Below, piece after piece: positions 19,495-36,136 of a stretch of 36,136 nt of DNA. Numbering within the stretch: the first letter of the stretch is position 1; every line of letters begins with the position of its first letter. Below the pieces are notes generated by a model, which was given only the letters and a program-made list of their open reading frames with translations, did no database searches and was not told where the DNA came from. The translations under genes were made by a program, and so were the position numbers. The stretch is from a virus (Duplodnaviria > Caudoviricetes). The DNA lies in the IMG/VR virus record IMGVR_UViG_3300037311_000019, positions 1 to 36,136 of that record. One strand, given 5' to 3'.

Positions 19495-19514
19495 TACCTC
19501 TCTATTGGTGGGTT

Positions 19515-19645
19515 AGTAGTGGTGATGTGCTATTACGCCAAAGACATTTCTAGCGTTTTACCCGCCGCCAGCCTCAGCCAACAGCGGCGCTGACAATTCA
19601 CTCTTTAATGGATGGCTGCTTCTAAGCCTACTGCTCACCACTACT
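19515..19645 (-). ncRNA. Candidate structured intergenic RNA
   Basis: Perfect 11-bp closing stem AGTAGTGGTGA/TCACCACTACT around about 110 nt. Shares short motifs with the 27100-27273 element. Confidence 0.45.
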
Positions 19646-19655
19646 TTCCCGTTGG

Positions 19656-20120
19656 TCAAAACTCGCCCGGCGCAACTTGGAAACACGCAACACCTTCGCT
19701 GCGCCACATCTGCACTACTCTGTCGCGGTCATCAAAAACAGCGACAAGCCTTTTACGATCATCGACCAGCATGTTTTGAAACCATGAGCGTTTCAAATCG
19801 TCATCGGCGGTGTAATCACCTTCAGCGCGCATCATAAGCATCGGCTCGTGCAGGTCTAGCGATAAAAAACTAGTGTGTTTTGCAAGCCAATCAACAGTTT
19901 TCTGTCGAACCTCGTCACTACGCCCGCTAAAAAACCAAATATCTGCACCCGATTGCCGCAAAAGCTCCATCGTTTTAATAACCGGTTGGTTGGGCAAATC
20001 CTCACTGCACGCGGCATAAAAGTACCGCCACTTGTTGGGGTCGCTACTTTCAAGAAAATGCTTTCGATGTTCTATAAGCGCAATCGTGCCGTCAACATCA
20101 AAGATGTACAGAGGTTTCAT
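19656..20120 (-). CDS. HAD-family phosphatase (polynucleotide 3'-phosphatase/PseT-like domain)
   Basis: IFDVDGT (motif I), FSGR (motif II) and VFDDR (motif IV), ending CFQVAPGEF. Confidence 0.88.
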   Translation of the reverse strand: MKPLYIFDVDGTIALIEHRKHFLESSDPNKWRYFYAACSEDLPNQPVIKTMELLRQSGADIWFFSGRSDEVRQKTVDWLAKHTSFLSLDLHEPMLMMRAEGDYTADDDLKRSWFQNMLVDDRKRLVAVFDDRDRVVQMWRSEGVACFQVAPGEF

Positions 20121-25088: not shown

Positions 25089-25340
25089 TTAGCCGTAGCC
25101 GTCGCCGTAGCCATAGCCGTAGCCATAGCCGTTGCCGTAGCCGTCGCCGTAGCCGTCGCCGTCGCCGTCGCCGTAGCTGCCGTAGCCATAGCCGTAGCCA
25201 TAGCCGTTGCCGTAGCCGTCGCCGTAGCCATAGCCGTTGCCGTTGCCGTAGCCGTAGCCGTCGCCGTCGCCGTAGCTGCCGTCGCCGTAGCCGTAGCCGT
25301 AGCCGTTGCCGTCAATCGGCAAAACTAAATTGCCGACCAT
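25089..25340 (-). CDS. Gly-X (GYGDGYGNG) repeat protein
   Basis: About 36 GGC-[TAC/TAT/GAC/AAC] hexamers, co-oriented with the operon. Confidence 0.65.
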   Translation of the reverse strand: MVGNLVLPIDGNGYGYGYGDGSYGDGDGYGYGNGNGYGYGDGYGNGYGYGYGYGSYGDGDGDGYGDGYGNGYGYGYGYGDGYG

Positions 25341-25645
25341 TTTTTTTGCTCAACATCAATCAACAAAATAACGGCTCGCAAAGGCACGGTTACGACACCA
25401 GCTCTATCAAGAACCGTTGACGCCAAAGGCCCATTTACTAATTCGCCGAGACCTTTGGTTGTACCCCAACGGCGAATGTTTTTTGCGTTATCAATCGTCA
25501 AAAAATTGCCGTCAATTGTTGTATGGCCAACGTATACAAAACCACGGTCAACAACAACAATTTTGATTGAGCCGCTTGGCGGTTGAATTGAATCGGCTCG
25601 GACATACTGCACATTGTCAATCTGAATTGTGTTTGGTGCCGACAT
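25325..25645 (-). CDS. DUF6948-like conserved phage protein
   Basis: IVVVDRGFVYVG and NIRRWGTTKGLGEL..GP motifs. Strong SD AAGGAG. Confidence 0.75.
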   Translation of the reverse strand: MSAPNTIQIDNVQYVRADSIQPPSGSIKIVVVDRGFVYVGHTTIDGNFLTIDNAKNIRRWGTTKGLGELVNGPLASTVLDRAGVVTVPLRAVILLIDVEQKKWSAI

Positions 25646-25786
25646 TCTTTCTCCTTTAACAGTTAATTTGCGTCCGGCTCTGGCCGCAGCGCTCGCCTTA
25701 GATTCCTAGCTCTTTCGAGATACGCTTGCGCCGTAGGAATCACGCTTATCGGTGGTTACTCAATATGAGATATGTGCCGATGGGTG

Positions 25787-25815
25787 TAATATGCTCCTAT
25801 TCTAACCCATTGTCA
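25787..25815 (-). promoter_or_regulatory. Sigma70-type leftward promoter
   Basis: TTGACA-17 nt-CATATT on the minus strand, upstream of the 25645-18357 operon. Confidence 0.7.
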
Positions 25816-25911
25816 ACCCCTTTACATGATTAGACGCATATATTTTTTCGCCGCGTGTTGCGCTCTTGTTGGAATGACGCTTGGCACGTTATTTGCATAC
25901 GTGGTGTTCTC

Positions 25912-26262
25912 ATGACCGAGAGCCAAGAACAAACCGCGTTTGTGGAGTGGTTCCGCCTTCAATATCCAAAAGAGATTGTTTTCGCCATTCCCAACGGCGC
26001 AAATAAGTCGATAGCCACGGCCATGAAATTCAAGCGAGAAGGGCTACGCCCCGGCGTTCCCGACTTATTTATCGCTACTCAACCCGGAATCTTTATTGAG
26101 ATGAAAGCAAAAACGGGAAGGGTATCCAAGAAACAAAAAGAGATGATTGCCGCCCTAAGAGGCAAGGGATATATTGCAGAGGTGTGTTTTGGGTTTGAGG
26201 AAGCTAAGGCGTTGGCAAATAAATATCTTAACCCCCTTGACAAACGAAACGAGAGAGAATAA
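25912..26262 (+). CDS. VRR-NUC domain nuclease (Holliday junction resolvase-like)
   Basis: ESQEQ, FAIPNG, GVPDLFI, FIEMKAKTGRVSKKQ (PD-(D/E)xK fold). Confidence 0.88.
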   Translation: MTESQEQTAFVEWFRLQYPKEIVFAIPNGANKSIATAMKFKREGLRPGVPDLFIATQPGIFIEMKAKTGRVSKKQKEMIAALRGKGYIAEVCFGFEEAKALANKYLNPLDKRNERE

Positions 26263-26265
26263 AGT
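26237..26265 (+). promoter_or_regulatory. Sigma70-type promoter for the RNA cluster
   Basis: TTGACA-17 nt-TAAAGT. Confidence 0.75.
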
Positions 26266-26271
26266 ATGAAT

Positions 26272-26338
26272 CACCTACTCCCCTTCGGTGACGTATAGGA
26301 GCGTTACCGGTCACTTGACGGGTTTGGGGGAGTAGGTG
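26272..26338 (+). ncRNA. Structured leader RNA before the tRNA
   Basis: Perfect 12-bp stem CACCTACTCCCC/GGGGAGTAGGTG enclosing hairpin CGGTGACG/CGTTACCG. Confidence 0.5.
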
Positions 26339-26343
26339 TCTAA

Positions 26344-26418
26344 CGCGGGGTAGCTCAGAGGAGGAGCGCTGGATTCATAATCCAGAGGTCGTGGGTTCGA
26401 TTCTCACCCCCGCAACCA
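26344..26418 (+). tRNA. tRNA-Met (CAU) with initiator-like acceptor stem
   Basis: Full cloverleaf, anticodon CAT at 26376-26378, GGTTCGA T loop, encoded CCA, C1:A72 mismatch. Confidence 0.93.
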
Positions 26419-26431
26419 ACTAAGGGAAATT

Positions 26432-26740
26432 ATGGTTGAAAACATAAGTTTTAATCTCGCAAAGCAAGAAACGCAGGCGTCAGAGCCGAAAAAATCACCC
26501 ATCGATGAAAGCTTGGAGAGCCAGCGCATCTCCATCACTCAGATCGGAGGTGCTGTACAAGCTCTTCGCCGCCGATTAGTTCCCGTGCTTAAAGAGGGAA
26601 CCCAAACAGTTCAAGAAGACGCGACAATTTCTACAAAGAAAAGTTGTTGCCCATTAGCAGATGAAATTGAATCAAACAGCCAATCGTTAGCCTATATTAA
26701 CGGGATGGTTATGTTGTTGCTGGAAGATTTGGCATTGTAG
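26432..26740 (+). CDS. Hypothetical protein
   Basis: 102 aa helical ORF (RRLVPVL, CPLADEI) with SD AAGGG. Confidence 0.6.
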   Translation: MVENISFNLAKQETQASEPKKSPIDESLESQRISITQIGGAVQALRRRLVPVLKEGTQTVQEDATISTKKSCCPLADEIESNSQSLAYINGMVMLLLEDLAL

Positions 26741-26921
26741 ACCCGCTCATCACACACGGCTGGCGTGTGTCACTCACGGGTAAATGAGTGATTCCCCAAC
26801 ATCAGACCGCCCGATGTTTTGACCAGCAGGCGGACTTACATTGAAAGTCTTTGCAAGCCAATTATGTCGCTTCATGTGGCGTGTTTGTAGAGGCTTTCAA
26901 TGTGGGTGAAGCTCCAAAGTA

Positions 26922-26975
26922 TCGAAACGGCTCTAAGTAGAGAAACGCTCGAAACGGCTCTAAGTAGAGAAACGC
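26922..26975. repeat. Perfect 27-nt tandem duplication
   Basis: TCGAAACGGCTCTAAGTAGAGAAACGC twice. Confidence 0.95.
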
Positions 26976-27099
26976 ACCTGAACCCACACGACCGACTCCC
27001 GTAAGGAGTCACTACACGCATGGAGATTGTTGGGGGAGTGGGGGTTGTGGCCCCTCCCTTAAACGATTGGCTGCCACCAGCGCCAGCAGTCTCCAGCCG

Positions 27100-27273
27100 T
27101 GTGGGTGAATGCGTAGGCTGATACGCAAGTAGCAAAAAAAGTAGTCGGAGGTTGCGCTACCGATGAAATTAATGCTGTTGTACGTGGCGAATGGGTAAAC
27201 GCGAGTGGCAAAACCACTTAGTTGCTGGTTCGAGTCCAGCCGTATATGCCGGAGATAGCACCGGCCACCCACA
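27100..27273 (+). ncRNA. tRNA-shaped RNA containing a nested tRNA-like element
   Basis: Outer stem TGTGGGTG/CACCCACA, hairpins TGCGTA/TACGCA and GCCGG/CCGGC, inner cloverleaf at about 27178-27248 with GCTGG-TTCGAGT-CCAGC. Confidence 0.65.
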
Positions 27274-27405
27274 ACCTAGAAAGCTAACGGTTCAGCGCCG
27301 ATAATACGCAAGCCTGCAAAGTACATGCGGGGACTGCGCGGGGAGCCGTTAGCTTTGTAGGCGCTTGTAGCCTAACTAGAGAAGCGCGAAATTAGGAGAA
27401 CAGAC

Positions 27406-27651
27406 ATGGGCTGCAATATGATGGGAGACGCAAGTAACGGCGATTTTGCTTGGAGTGCGGCGCAAGATGCGCAGAAAGATGTCAGCGAGCTAATGCGCCG
27501 TGTAGCTGAGTTAGAGCAGGCTTTATGCGGCGTTTGCCAGACATTGGAGCGCGACGGTTTGCCGTCCGAACTACAAAACAAGCATCCGTTGCTTCAGCAG
27601 TGCTTTGACAAGCACAAGCGGCAGCCGGGCTGTGAATTGCATGGTAGATAA
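27406..27651 (+). CDS. Hypothetical protein
   Basis: SD AGGAG, 81 aa, coiled coil plus LCGVC. Confidence 0.6.
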   Translation: MGCNMMGDASNGDFAWSAAQDAQKDVSELMRRVAELEQALCGVCQTLERDGLPSELQNKHPLLQQCFDKHKRQPGCELHGR

Positions 27652-27694
27652 TTTGCCTCTAGCCGGAACTACCAAGAATTTCTAGGGAGTTAAT

Positions 27695-27949
27695 GTGAAA
27701 GATTTTTATCTGGTGTACGTGTGGGGTATGGGCGAAATGCCTGAACGCCGCCACTCGACTCTTAAGAGTGCGGTAGATGAAGCGGAGCGTTTGCGCGGCC
27801 TTACAGACCATGCAATCTACATCATGAAGCCAGAGCATTGCCTCGAAGGCAAAGAGCCGCAGAAGTCCCTTAAAAAGCGGCAGAAGATGAAACAATGGCA
27901 TGCGAAACAAGGTTCGATTCAAAAGTCGCTTGCAGAAAAGGTGATTTAG
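27695..27949 (+). CDS. Hypothetical protein
   Basis: SD GGGAG before GTG, with RHSTLKSAVDEAERL motif. Confidence 0.6.
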   Translation: MKDFYLVYVWGMGEMPERRHSTLKSAVDEAERLRGLTDHAIYIMKPEHCLEGKEPQKSLKKRQKMKQWHAKQGSIQKSLAEKVI

Positions 27950-27958
27950 GTATACAGT
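27930..27958 (+). promoter_or_regulatory. Sigma70-type promoter for the replication block
   Basis: TTGCAG-17 nt-TACAGT. Confidence 0.55.
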
Positions 27959-27966
27959 TACTTTGT

Positions 27967-28272
27967 TGCTCATATAGTCAGGTGTGAGCAGAAAGCCGTT
28001 GTGAAGGTGTATGCAGGGGATTCCCCGACTAGCTGACTCTAGTGCATACATCTCCATAACGGCTTTTTCTTTGGCTAAACGAAACGTGCTGGTTGCGTGA
28101 ACAATGAGCCTAATGGGGCTGCTACCAAGAAAACCATACTGCGGGCATGGTGCAATTCCTTAACCGTGGGGACTGGCTGCATCGTCAAGTCCGGGGACTA
28201 TCGAAAGATAGCATGACGATCCCGAAAGGGGCTGAAACCCTCTAACTCACTTGTGGGGTAGGGGGAGGCTTT
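27967..28272 (+). ncRNA. Structured leader RNA with complementary loops and a terminator-like long stem
   Basis: Hairpin loop AGTCAG is complementary to loop CTGACT. About 26-bp stem ends in a U tract. GAAA-tetraloop hairpins follow downstream. Confidence 0.65.
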
Positions 28273-28306
28273 TGGCTGAAATTAACTTACGTTAGGGTAT
28301 GAGGTT

Positions 28307-28531
28307 ATGACCACAAAAGAAATCCTAATCGCGGCACGCGCTAAGGTAGCGCAAGGGTGGTGTCAGGGTGCGTATGCTAAAGATGCCTATGGTAATACAG
28401 AAGAGCAGGAAGATGCGCTGGCTTTGTTAGGCTATACCGGAGAAAGTGAGGTAATTGATTGGAACGACGCCCCCGGGCGCACCCAAGCGGAAGTATTGGA
28501 AGCCTTTGATAAGACTATTGCCAATGCTTAG
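28307..28531 (+). CDS. DUF6197-like small protein
   Basis: GWCQG and WNDAPGRTQAEVLEAFD motifs. SD GAGG. Confidence 0.7.
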   Translation: MTTKEILIAARAKVAQGWCQGAYAKDAYGNTEEQEDALALLGYTGESEVIDWNDAPGRTQAEVLEAFDKTIANA

Positions 28532-28892
28532 CGACTTTGACCAATTTTGGGCCGCCTACCCTCGAAAGATAGCCAAGGCTGATGCGCGCAAGGCATGGGC
28601 ACAAATGGCGCAGAAACTGCCACCTGTTGCTGAATTGCTATCCGCTATCTCCGTGGCAAAGGAGTCGGAACAGTGGCGCAAGGATTCTGGGCTGTATATC
28701 CCCTACCCTGCTACATGGTTACGAGGCGAACGGTGGGAGGACTGCTACGAGGCTGAAATAACCCCGCTTGCTCCTAAAGCGGCATGGTGGACAAGTGACG
28801 AAACCATCATGGCGTATGGGAAAGAAAAGGGAATCAACCCGAGGCCGGGAGAGACGATGAGAGACTACAAGGCTCGATTGGAGAACGCATGA
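28524..28892 (+). CDS. Minimal replication-initiator-like protein (C-terminal-type domain only)
   Basis: FDQFWAAYPRKIAKADARKAW and YIPYPATWLRGERWED, typical of the C-terminus of phage replication initiators. Confidence 0.7.
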   Translation: MLSDFDQFWAAYPRKIAKADARKAWAQMAQKLPPVAELLSAISVAKESEQWRKDSGLYIPYPATWLRGERWEDCYEAEITPLAPKAAWWTSDETIMAYGKEKGINPRPGETMRDYKARLENA

Positions 28893-35689: not shown

Positions 35690-36136
35690 GCTTACGGCGA
35701 AACAACAAGACGCACAGGCGCTACTTGCTGGCAATGCGGCGCATTGCATGTTGTTTGGCGGCTCTCGAAGTGGCAAGACGTTTTTGTTGACGCGCAATGT
35801 AATCATGCGCGCACTTAAAGCGCCAAAGTCAAGGCATGCTGTGCTTAGATACAGATTTAACGCAGTAAAGCAATCAATCGTATTTGATACGCTCCCTAAA
35901 GTGATGGAGATGTGTTTCGCGTCCGTCCCGTACACGCTCAATAAATCAGAGTGGTTTATTGAGTTGCCGAACGGCTCTCAAGTGTGGTTTGGGGGTCTGG
36001 ACGACAAAGGGCGAACCGAGAAGATTTTAGGGCAAGAGTACGCGACAATTTATCTTAATGAGTGCTCGCAGATACCGTTTAACTCGCGCGGCATTGCGGT
36101 GACTCGTCTTGCGCAGCAAGCAACGCAAGTAATAGA
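35676..36136 (+). CDS. terL: Terminase large subunit, 5' part (not in the ORF track because it runs off the end)
   Basis: MTAFKLTAKQ and Walker A GGSRSGKT. In frame with base 1 through the terminal repeat. Confidence 0.92.
   Translation, partial: MTAFKLTAKQQDAQALLAGNAAHCMLFGGSRSGKTFLLTRNVIMRALKAPKSRHAVLRYRFNAVKQSIVFDTLPKVMEMCFASVPYTLNKSEWFIELPNGSQVWFGGLDDKGRTEKILGQEYATIYLNECSQIPFNSRGIAVTRLAQQATQVI
35994..36136. repeat. Terminal direct repeat, right copy
   Basis: Matches 1-143 with one mismatch. Confidence 0.95.

Follow-up and report, generated by a model that had tools for sequence, protein, structure and literature searches.

The structured non-coding region described here is an array of modules and not one large RNA. 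It lies in a window of 36,136 bases, the entirety of one virus record. The core of the array (27012-27273) is, as sequence comparison supports well, formed by two interlocked modules, a long stem (U2) and a tRNA-shaped scaffold (D2), which come from two widespread phage RNA families, and both families covary across phages. The flanking stem-plus-module pairs, which extend the array to 26835-27374, plausibly belong to the same design.

A first-pass annotation, made from the letters of the sequence, had taken the region for a polycistronic and uncatalogued RNA cassette, and it had proposed cmscan against Rfam and a search for homologues and covariation in IMG/VR as checks. Both came out in its favor. 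In the window cmscan matched only tRNA and left the RNA frames unmatched, while the search of IMG/VR found two widespread covarying families for 27012-27273; two modules of the proposed cassette thus belong to covarying phage RNA families that have no Rfam match.

Table 1. Features of the array, its surroundings and one distant gene
Feature	Position	Strand	Evidence and remarks
Polynucleotide-kinase-type HAD phosphatase, stand-alone domain	19656-20120	-	Pfam HAD_PNKP, E 2e-33
Sigma-70-like promoter, TTGACA-17-TAAAGT	26237-26265	+	10/12 consensus match only; overlaps end of VRR-NUC gene
Three-way-junction hairpin before the tRNA	26272-26338	+	z -6.0
tRNA-Met(CAU) with encoded CCA	26344-26421	+	62.5 bits over 26344-26418
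102-aa ORFan with AAGGGA ribosome-binding site	26432-26740	+	no PHROG or Pfam family
Small hairpin cluster	26741-26792	+	z -1.7; 13/200 shuffles as good (chance level)
Long stem U1, 24 bp with 7-bp apical hairpin, 9 G-U	26835-26906	+	z -9.0; 3' arm overlaps D1 5' arm
Module D1, 7-bp closing stem TGTGGGT/ACCCACA, then GAA as in D2	26901-26988	+	z -1.3; 23/200 shuffles as good
Spacer hairpin GACTCC/GGAGTC	26994-27010	+	fold prediction
Long stem U2, 7 bp, 2x2 internal loop, 9 bp, variable apical insert	27012-27104	+	z -4.3; model R2, 46.7 bits, E 1.5e-13
tRNA-shaped scaffold D2	27100-27273	+	model R1, 54.9 bits, E 2.8e-13
tRNA look-alike inside D2 cargo	27178-27248	+	cmscan 40.8 bits, E-value mode
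Long stem U3, 14 bp and 4 bp, branched apical insert	27275-27361	+	z -5.6
Possible minimal module D3, a 5-bp hairpin with TAGG in common with U3 3' arm	27358-27374	+	weak; pairing 0.7 upstream, 0.3 downstream
81-aa ORF with AGGAG site, first gene past the array	27406-27651	+	no family

Two RNA families at the core of the array

Taken whole, 26741-27361 folds with a z of -7.5 on the plus strand against -4.6 on the minus strand, and four domains (26272-26338, 26835-26906, 27012-27104, and 27275-27361) fold far better than shuffled sequences, with z from -4.3 to -9.0. The region had been described earlier as tiled by stems with many G-U pairs. All of these stems lie where they had been placed and the two long ones among them (26835-26906 and 27275-27361) stand out from shuffles, but the hairpin cluster at 26741-26792 and the domain at 26901-26988 fold at chance level. 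The wealth of G-U pairs is likewise real for the 24-bp stem (9 of 31 pairs) but not for the other long stems, which have 2-3 among 25-32.

The U2 family has a frame of 7-8 bp, a 2x2 loop, 9 bp, an insert of 10-40 nt, and a 3' arm common to the next module, and it occurs in approximately 240 IMG/VR stretches. On the window, model R2, which like model R1 was built without it, scores 46.7 bits on the plus strand against 10.9 on the minus strand. The free paired positions of the frame are both paired in 110 of 113 distinct members, with 37 G-U and three A-C combinations, where about 33 A-C would be expected from the counts if the positions were independent. Tolerance of G-U with few A-C points to an RNA of the plus strand, and the earlier claim of selection at the RNA level on that strand is borne out. 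Covariation in alignment A2, which holds the first 45 of 93 distinct U2 inserts, is 0.153 versus 0.105. Two to four copies are found in 28 of the 113 loci, with no extra copy in the opposite orientation in any of them (0/113), and the genes 3' of the copies differ widely. The one match among 185,579 prokaryotic genomes is in a Burkholderiales assembly, a weak hint that the hosts belong to this group. At least eight further recurring module types with conserved ends and a variable middle were seen 3' of U2 (L129, L152, L160, L149, L127, L157, and others); they had no Rfam match in the 20 loci scanned.

The frame of the scaffold family runs from a closing stem through a GAAU linker, hairpin A (D-like), a variable insert, and hairpin B (T-like) back to the closing stem. 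The acceptor-like closing stem and the 5-bp hairpin B follow each other without a gap and stack, as the acceptor and T stems of a tRNA do. The loops of A and B are complementary and form a kissing-loop elbow, with the cargo at the place of the anticodon arm. In the window these parts are the acceptor-like stem (27100-27107/27266-27273), the D-like arm (27111-27126), the T-like arm (27248-27265), and a cargo of about 120 nt; its own kissing loop has one C missing. The likeness to tRNA (RF00005) thus covers the acceptor-like stem on a 5-bp T-like stem, the D-like arm, the loop-loop elbow, and a location in or beside tRNA clusters. Unlike a tRNA, the scaffold has no anticodon arm, TPsiC loop, or constant CCA, and its elbow is made by Watson-Crick kissing. 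Its 3' tails are variable, with ACCA behind the stem in only six elements, and ARAGORN made no tRNA call on it. Inserts range from about 27 to 163 nt. A 20-nt pattern starting at 27106 was found in 121 stretches in 4 of the 64 parts of IMG/VR, or about 2000 in all, and the match of model R1 in the window spans 27098-27276, the next match there scoring 10.3 bits.

Pairing within the scaffold was measured with hairpin B located by motif alone, which succeeded for 100 of 118 distinct anchors, the window among them. The closing stem was paired at 93.6%, versus 64.0% with shuffled partners (maximum 70.6%), and at 90.3% versus 57.1% when each distinct arm was given one row (n = 31); most of its positions show four to six pair types. 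Alignment A1 retained 34 of the 39 elements of 95-125 nt (94 were found), after removal of three near-duplicates and two that were mis-delimited. It holds eight pairs with two-sided changes, a number reached by 0 of 500 shuffles; columns fixed by the search patterns were not counted as evidence, and kinship among phages was corrected in part only. A scan that left loop B free gave 67 distinct hits. An upstream closing stem was located for 50 of these; about half of the other 17 are chance matches. Matched changes in both kissing loops are present in five of the 50 (GUCGA/UCGAC, GAUGAU/AUCAUC twice, GCGAU/AUCGC, and ACUGA/UCAGU), the kissing pairs are broken or weakened in two, and one ordinary tRNA-type sequence among the 50 also fits the pattern.

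The two modules interlock through bases 27100-27104, which are common to the 3' arm of U2 and the 5' arm of D2 and pair either way. Across U2 loci, the 6 nt past the core find a downstream Watson-Crick partner in 70 of 98 cases (7.4 in shuffles), and such re-pairing occurs in 49 of 65 near sequences against 6 of 65 in the far control. Some of these partners may be the 5' arm of a following U2 copy. Among 80 scaffold loci, nine have a U2 that overlaps the scaffold's 5' arm, and a long helix of some kind terminates at the scaffold in 70 of 111 loci versus 7 of 75 controls. The modules are also mixed: 19 of 20 multi-member groups of U2 inserts are joined to differing groups of downstream sequence, in a grouping by common 12-mers that is crude and takes in some downstream sequences that are not modules.

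The scaffold is found in other phages as well. In the N4-like phage ZC08 it lies within a tRNA cluster, and next to tRNAs of the P1-like phage RCS47 it occurs as tandem pairs together with a different long stem. The ban leader of phage P1, at about 69816-70203 of its record, carries two copies that lack an RNA annotation and lie in part beneath upl, an antisense gene; the same leader has a region annotated as dicF-like. At L026 and comparable loci, the outer stem of the lambda N leader carries the scaffold in place of its apex. An enterobacterial example has a partial match in 638 of 5426 E. coli genomes, and among the 30 matches listed none has an RNA feature annotation. Protein genes are annotated antisense across both P1 copies; plp and upl run antisense across RNA modules at 24473-25204 of L381 (P1) and 2438-3049 of L122 (RCS47), and they may be shadow ORFs. 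The leader of P22 gene 24 (L383, 30690-30800) has an outer stem like that of the lambda N leader, with another apical insert and no R1 match.

With about 2000 and 240 IMG/VR stretches the two RNA families are common, yet neither Rfam nor the papers searched contain them. Rfam returned only tRNA in the window, at both gathering and E-value thresholds, and no match for the RNA frames in 20 scaffold and 20 U2 loci. In the literature, searched mostly outside subscription papers, no description of either family was found, and motif strings matched one unrelated paper. The files searched from the candidate-RNA supplements of PMC10690425 and PMC8040213, a set exclusive of their alignment archives, held no motif; the two frames may stand as unnamed candidates in those alignments. 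By eye, no hammerhead or hairpin ribozyme core in line with the consensus was seen in the array, and there was no Rfam hit for one. The tRNA cluster of ZC08 (L124, 2240-2300) has hammerhead-like core motifs, judged in the same manner.

Flanking elements and the tRNA look-alike

The elements that the first-pass annotation had listed upstream of the array were all recovered. The near-consensus promoter is present at 26237-26265, with 10 of 12 consensus positions; five sites of equal quality occur in 3.2 kb where 3.3 are expected, so the match alone is weak. The three-way junction behind it folds better than shuffles, and its two exact-pattern matches in IMG/VR are both unrelated repeats. The first pair of the tRNA-Met(CAU) is a C-A mismatch, a trait of initiator tRNAs. 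One ORF follows (26432-26740), which is probably a small gene; a search for its homologues gave itself alone among six candidates and one weak 32% match. Beyond it, the earlier statement that there is no convincing sense ORF agrees with a longest plus-strand inter-stop frame of at most 46 codons in 26741-27405, and the reverse-strand ORFs 26872-27135 and 27012-27272 have no Pfam family. The proposed transcript of about 1.1 kb was not confirmed. There is no terminator-like site on the plus strand in 25400-28600 and the ORF at 27406 follows with a strong ribosome-binding site (AGGAG), so a transcript of this length is not delimited.

The overlap of a stem with the module behind it is repeated at 26835-26906/26901-26988 and, weakly, at 27275-27361/27358-27374, with one sequence for each. 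D1 would belong to the array by its position and its common 5' motif: GTGGGTGAA occurs at 26902 and 27101 only in the genome. Model R1 does not match D1, which contains a perfect 27-nt tandem duplication (2 x 27 nt, 26922-26975). The pairing of D3 could be chance. Exact-pattern searches gave one match for U1, a chance match in a coding region, and none for U3. A blastn comparison of the array with the collected phage loci matched tRNA and T-arm sequences only and left U1, D1, U3, D3, and the junction without a homologue.

The cargo of D2 holds the nested tRNA-like RNA that had been noticed at first sight and that cmscan confirmed at 27178-27248. Its T-arm is canonical (GCUGG-UUCGAGU-CCAGC). 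In the cmscan alignment, a 5-nt loop, CAAAA, replaces the anticodon loop; the Phe(aaa) call by ARAGORN is a reading with a 7-nt loop and without U33. Moreover, the first pair is U-U, there is no CCA, and the 3' end runs into the T-like stem of the scaffold at 27248. With a 5-nt loop and neither U33 nor CCA, the look-alike is predicted not to decode. Its one exact-pattern match in public collections arose by chance. Hairpins with a T-loop are present in 4 of 127, 1 of 110, 3 of 83, and 6 of 47 inserts, with an average of at most 0.03 in shuffles. They are a small minority of 14 among 367 inserts in these four overlapping sets, and therefore a role as tRNA decoy cannot account for most of the cargo.

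Processing, cargo function, and competing readings

We propose that 26835-27374 is an interlocking array that RNase III and RNase P would process to stable small RNAs, with inserts serving as decoys or inhibitors, a proposal that by analogy we consider evenly poised as a whole. As to its parts, the architecture of interlocked modules is, from the sequence comparisons, very probable, processing into small RNAs is fairly probable, and a decoy or inhibitor role would, given processing, have about an even chance. The array would then work in the manner of processed phage small RNAs such as C4, DicF, and the RNAs of tRNA clusters. Transcription would begin at the 26237 promoter, within a longer early operon. 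Host RNase III would cut the long stems and free the shared strand. The downstream acceptor-like stem could then form, and trimming of the tRNA-shaped scaffold by RNase P would give stable small RNAs. The inserts, which would be exchanged by recombination between short conserved arms, would target RNA-binding or defense proteins of the host, either as decoys or as inhibitors.

A processing stem for RNase III is a helix of roughly two turns in which small internal loops are allowed. The candidates here are U1 with 24 continuous bp, U2 with 7 and 9 bp around the 2x2 loop, and U3 with 4 and 14 bp. At 9 bp, the inner helix of U2 would make a short substrate for the enzyme unless the 2x2 loop stacks through, and its sequence varies so little that it could instead be bound by a protein. 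The modeled geometry of the scaffold fits a 5' end made by RNase P. The stems resemble the lambda N leader and T7 R1.1 in their length, small internal loop, and place in a phage early transcript, and the lambda N-leader stem is itself presumably an RNase III cut site. Lambda RNA has several sites of RNase III action (PMC5371410, which cites the N leader paper), and the enzyme also acts on early RNAs of T7, whose R1.1 site is described in PMC8708148. The lambda and T7 stems are known as processing or translation signals, whereas the stems of the array are repeated, interlocked, and provided with exchangeable inserts.

A decoy or inhibitor role is favored by inserts that are self-folded, variable, and exchanged, and by T-loop hairpins that are enriched though rare. 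It is also favored by the tRNA mimic that forms the cargo of the window, by an RNA-repair-type phosphatase in the genome, and by phage tRNAs, which counter tRNA-cutting defenses (PMC11555353).

The main rival to the decoy reading holds that the inserts are antisense guides which pair with phage or host mRNAs, as in C4, CI, and DicF, with the modules still processed. C4 is described in PMC5320573 as a phage RNA processed by RNase P whose variable loops set target specificity. Like C4, the modules are small phage RNAs presumably cut from a longer transcript, with a closing stem, two hairpins, and variable parts on a fixed frame, and the processing by RNase P that the same paper reports for C4 would apply to the array as well. 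In contrast to C4, the loops here are conserved and mutually kissing and the variable part is an insert of 27-163 nt; in P1, moreover, the scaffold lies elsewhere, in the ban leader. The parallel with P1 C4 drawn earlier does not extend to membership: the Rfam model of the C4/CI antisense RNA (RF01695) has no match in the window or in 40 homologous loci, although it finds the P1, P4, and N15 controls at 68.8-78.8 bits. In the reverse test, the scaffold model misses P1 C4 and its P4 and N15 equivalents. An icd/ant antirepressor operon is absent behind the array, where the next ORFs have no family. DicF, from the Qin prophage, has no match in the window, and no terminator-ended Hfq-type module was seen. 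The sharing of the P1 ban leader by a dicF-like annotated region and two scaffold copies speaks for guides, but the inserts are strongly self-paired, and 26741-27400 has no complement longer than 14 nt elsewhere in the genome, which looks complete. With 100 shuffles the values were 11-16 nt, in a test that C4-type targets of 7-8 nt and host targets escape. We regard antisense guides as improbable, with an appreciable chance remaining.

A different proposal makes the array a cis-acting leader, in which a strand switch or an RNase III cut frees a ribosome-binding site and times translation of the gene at 27406. The scaffold does sit in an N-leader stem in L026 and similar loci, the shared strands are able to pair either way, and about 20 nt separate the end of U3/D3 from the AGGAG site. 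However, copies in tRNA clusters and tandem runs lie far from start codons, the downstream genes differ widely, and a switch needs neither tRNA geometry nor a kissing-loop elbow nor hypervariable inserts, which leaves a leader function unlikely.

That the hairpins act as DNA, in recombination or mobility, or are decaying tRNA remnants without present function is very unlikely. Cassette-like variability, the fresh 27-nt duplication, the degenerate tRNA, and the C missing from one kissing loop would fit, but tolerance of G-U with avoidance of A-C on one strand, compensated kissing loops, and extra copies that never lie in the opposite orientation (0/113) all run counter to it, as does the absence of an integrase or transposase among the 55 proteins scanned.

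GOLLD and ROOL, also named earlier as precedents, resemble the array in that a long structured non-coding stretch adjoins a phage tRNA (here tRNA-Met, 26344-26418) and in their kissing loops (10.1101/2024.12.08.627333). The array differs in being modular and reshuffled, with no single conserved fold and no Rfam match, and since its modules occur separately and reshuffled, it is not a single large RNA of this type. The chance that 26741-27361 is nonetheless one large ornate RNA is slimmer still: the z of the whole region, the tRNA neighbor, and an 11-nt long-range complement of 26753 with 27093 point that way, but one such complement per 2.8 kb is expected by chance, Rfam has no match, modules occur alone and in other orders, and no record covers 80% of the region.

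A broader reading could be entertained tentatively, and we think it doubtful at present. Phages would run a widespread, diversifying library of small-RNA effectors, with constant processing frames and swappable inserts including tRNA mimics, as the RNA counterpart of anti-defense gene clusters, left unannotated in P1 and lambdoid phages. Were the inserts effectors, this would be a modular phage RNA arsenal invisible to protein-centered anti-defense screens. The RNA segment that sits atop the N-leader stem of lambdoid phages would gain a function as well, and a natural tRNA-like scaffold for stabilizing arbitrary RNAs would be available.

Genome context

The genome carries P22-like head genes along with lysis and replication genes. 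Its own classification is linear and 54% complete. A terminal overlap of about 140 nt (1-140 versus about 35995-36136, one mismatch) falls within the gene of the terminase large subunit, so the genome is probably complete despite the 54% estimate, and it is probably circularly permuted. No integrase or transposase was detected among its 55 scanned proteins, and no close relatives of the phage were found, the matches being one at 32% plus nine at 34-40%.

The rightward early or replication arm begins with the RNA array, which lies 3' of the VRR-NUC gene; the next ORFs past the array have no family and are followed by DUF6197 and a replication initiator. The HAD_PNKP phosphatase, encoded in another part of the genome, suggests RNA end repair by its domain. 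In the gap of a leftward operon at 19514-19645, a 10-bp closing stem surrounds about 110 nt and matches model R1 weakly on both strands; it may be another module. An 83-aa ORF on the minus strand (25089-25340), directly behind a 106-aa ORF, consists nearly entirely of Gly-Tyr-Gly-Asp/Asn repeats and has no family. A second non-coding block (27990-28300) precedes the replication genes; it contains a branched hairpin of 24 bp (z -7.7) that has a U run behind it. Rfam has no match at 27990-28400. The stretch behind the hairpin has matches of 66-80% in L131, L158, and L092, and the block is probably another conserved phage leader RNA.
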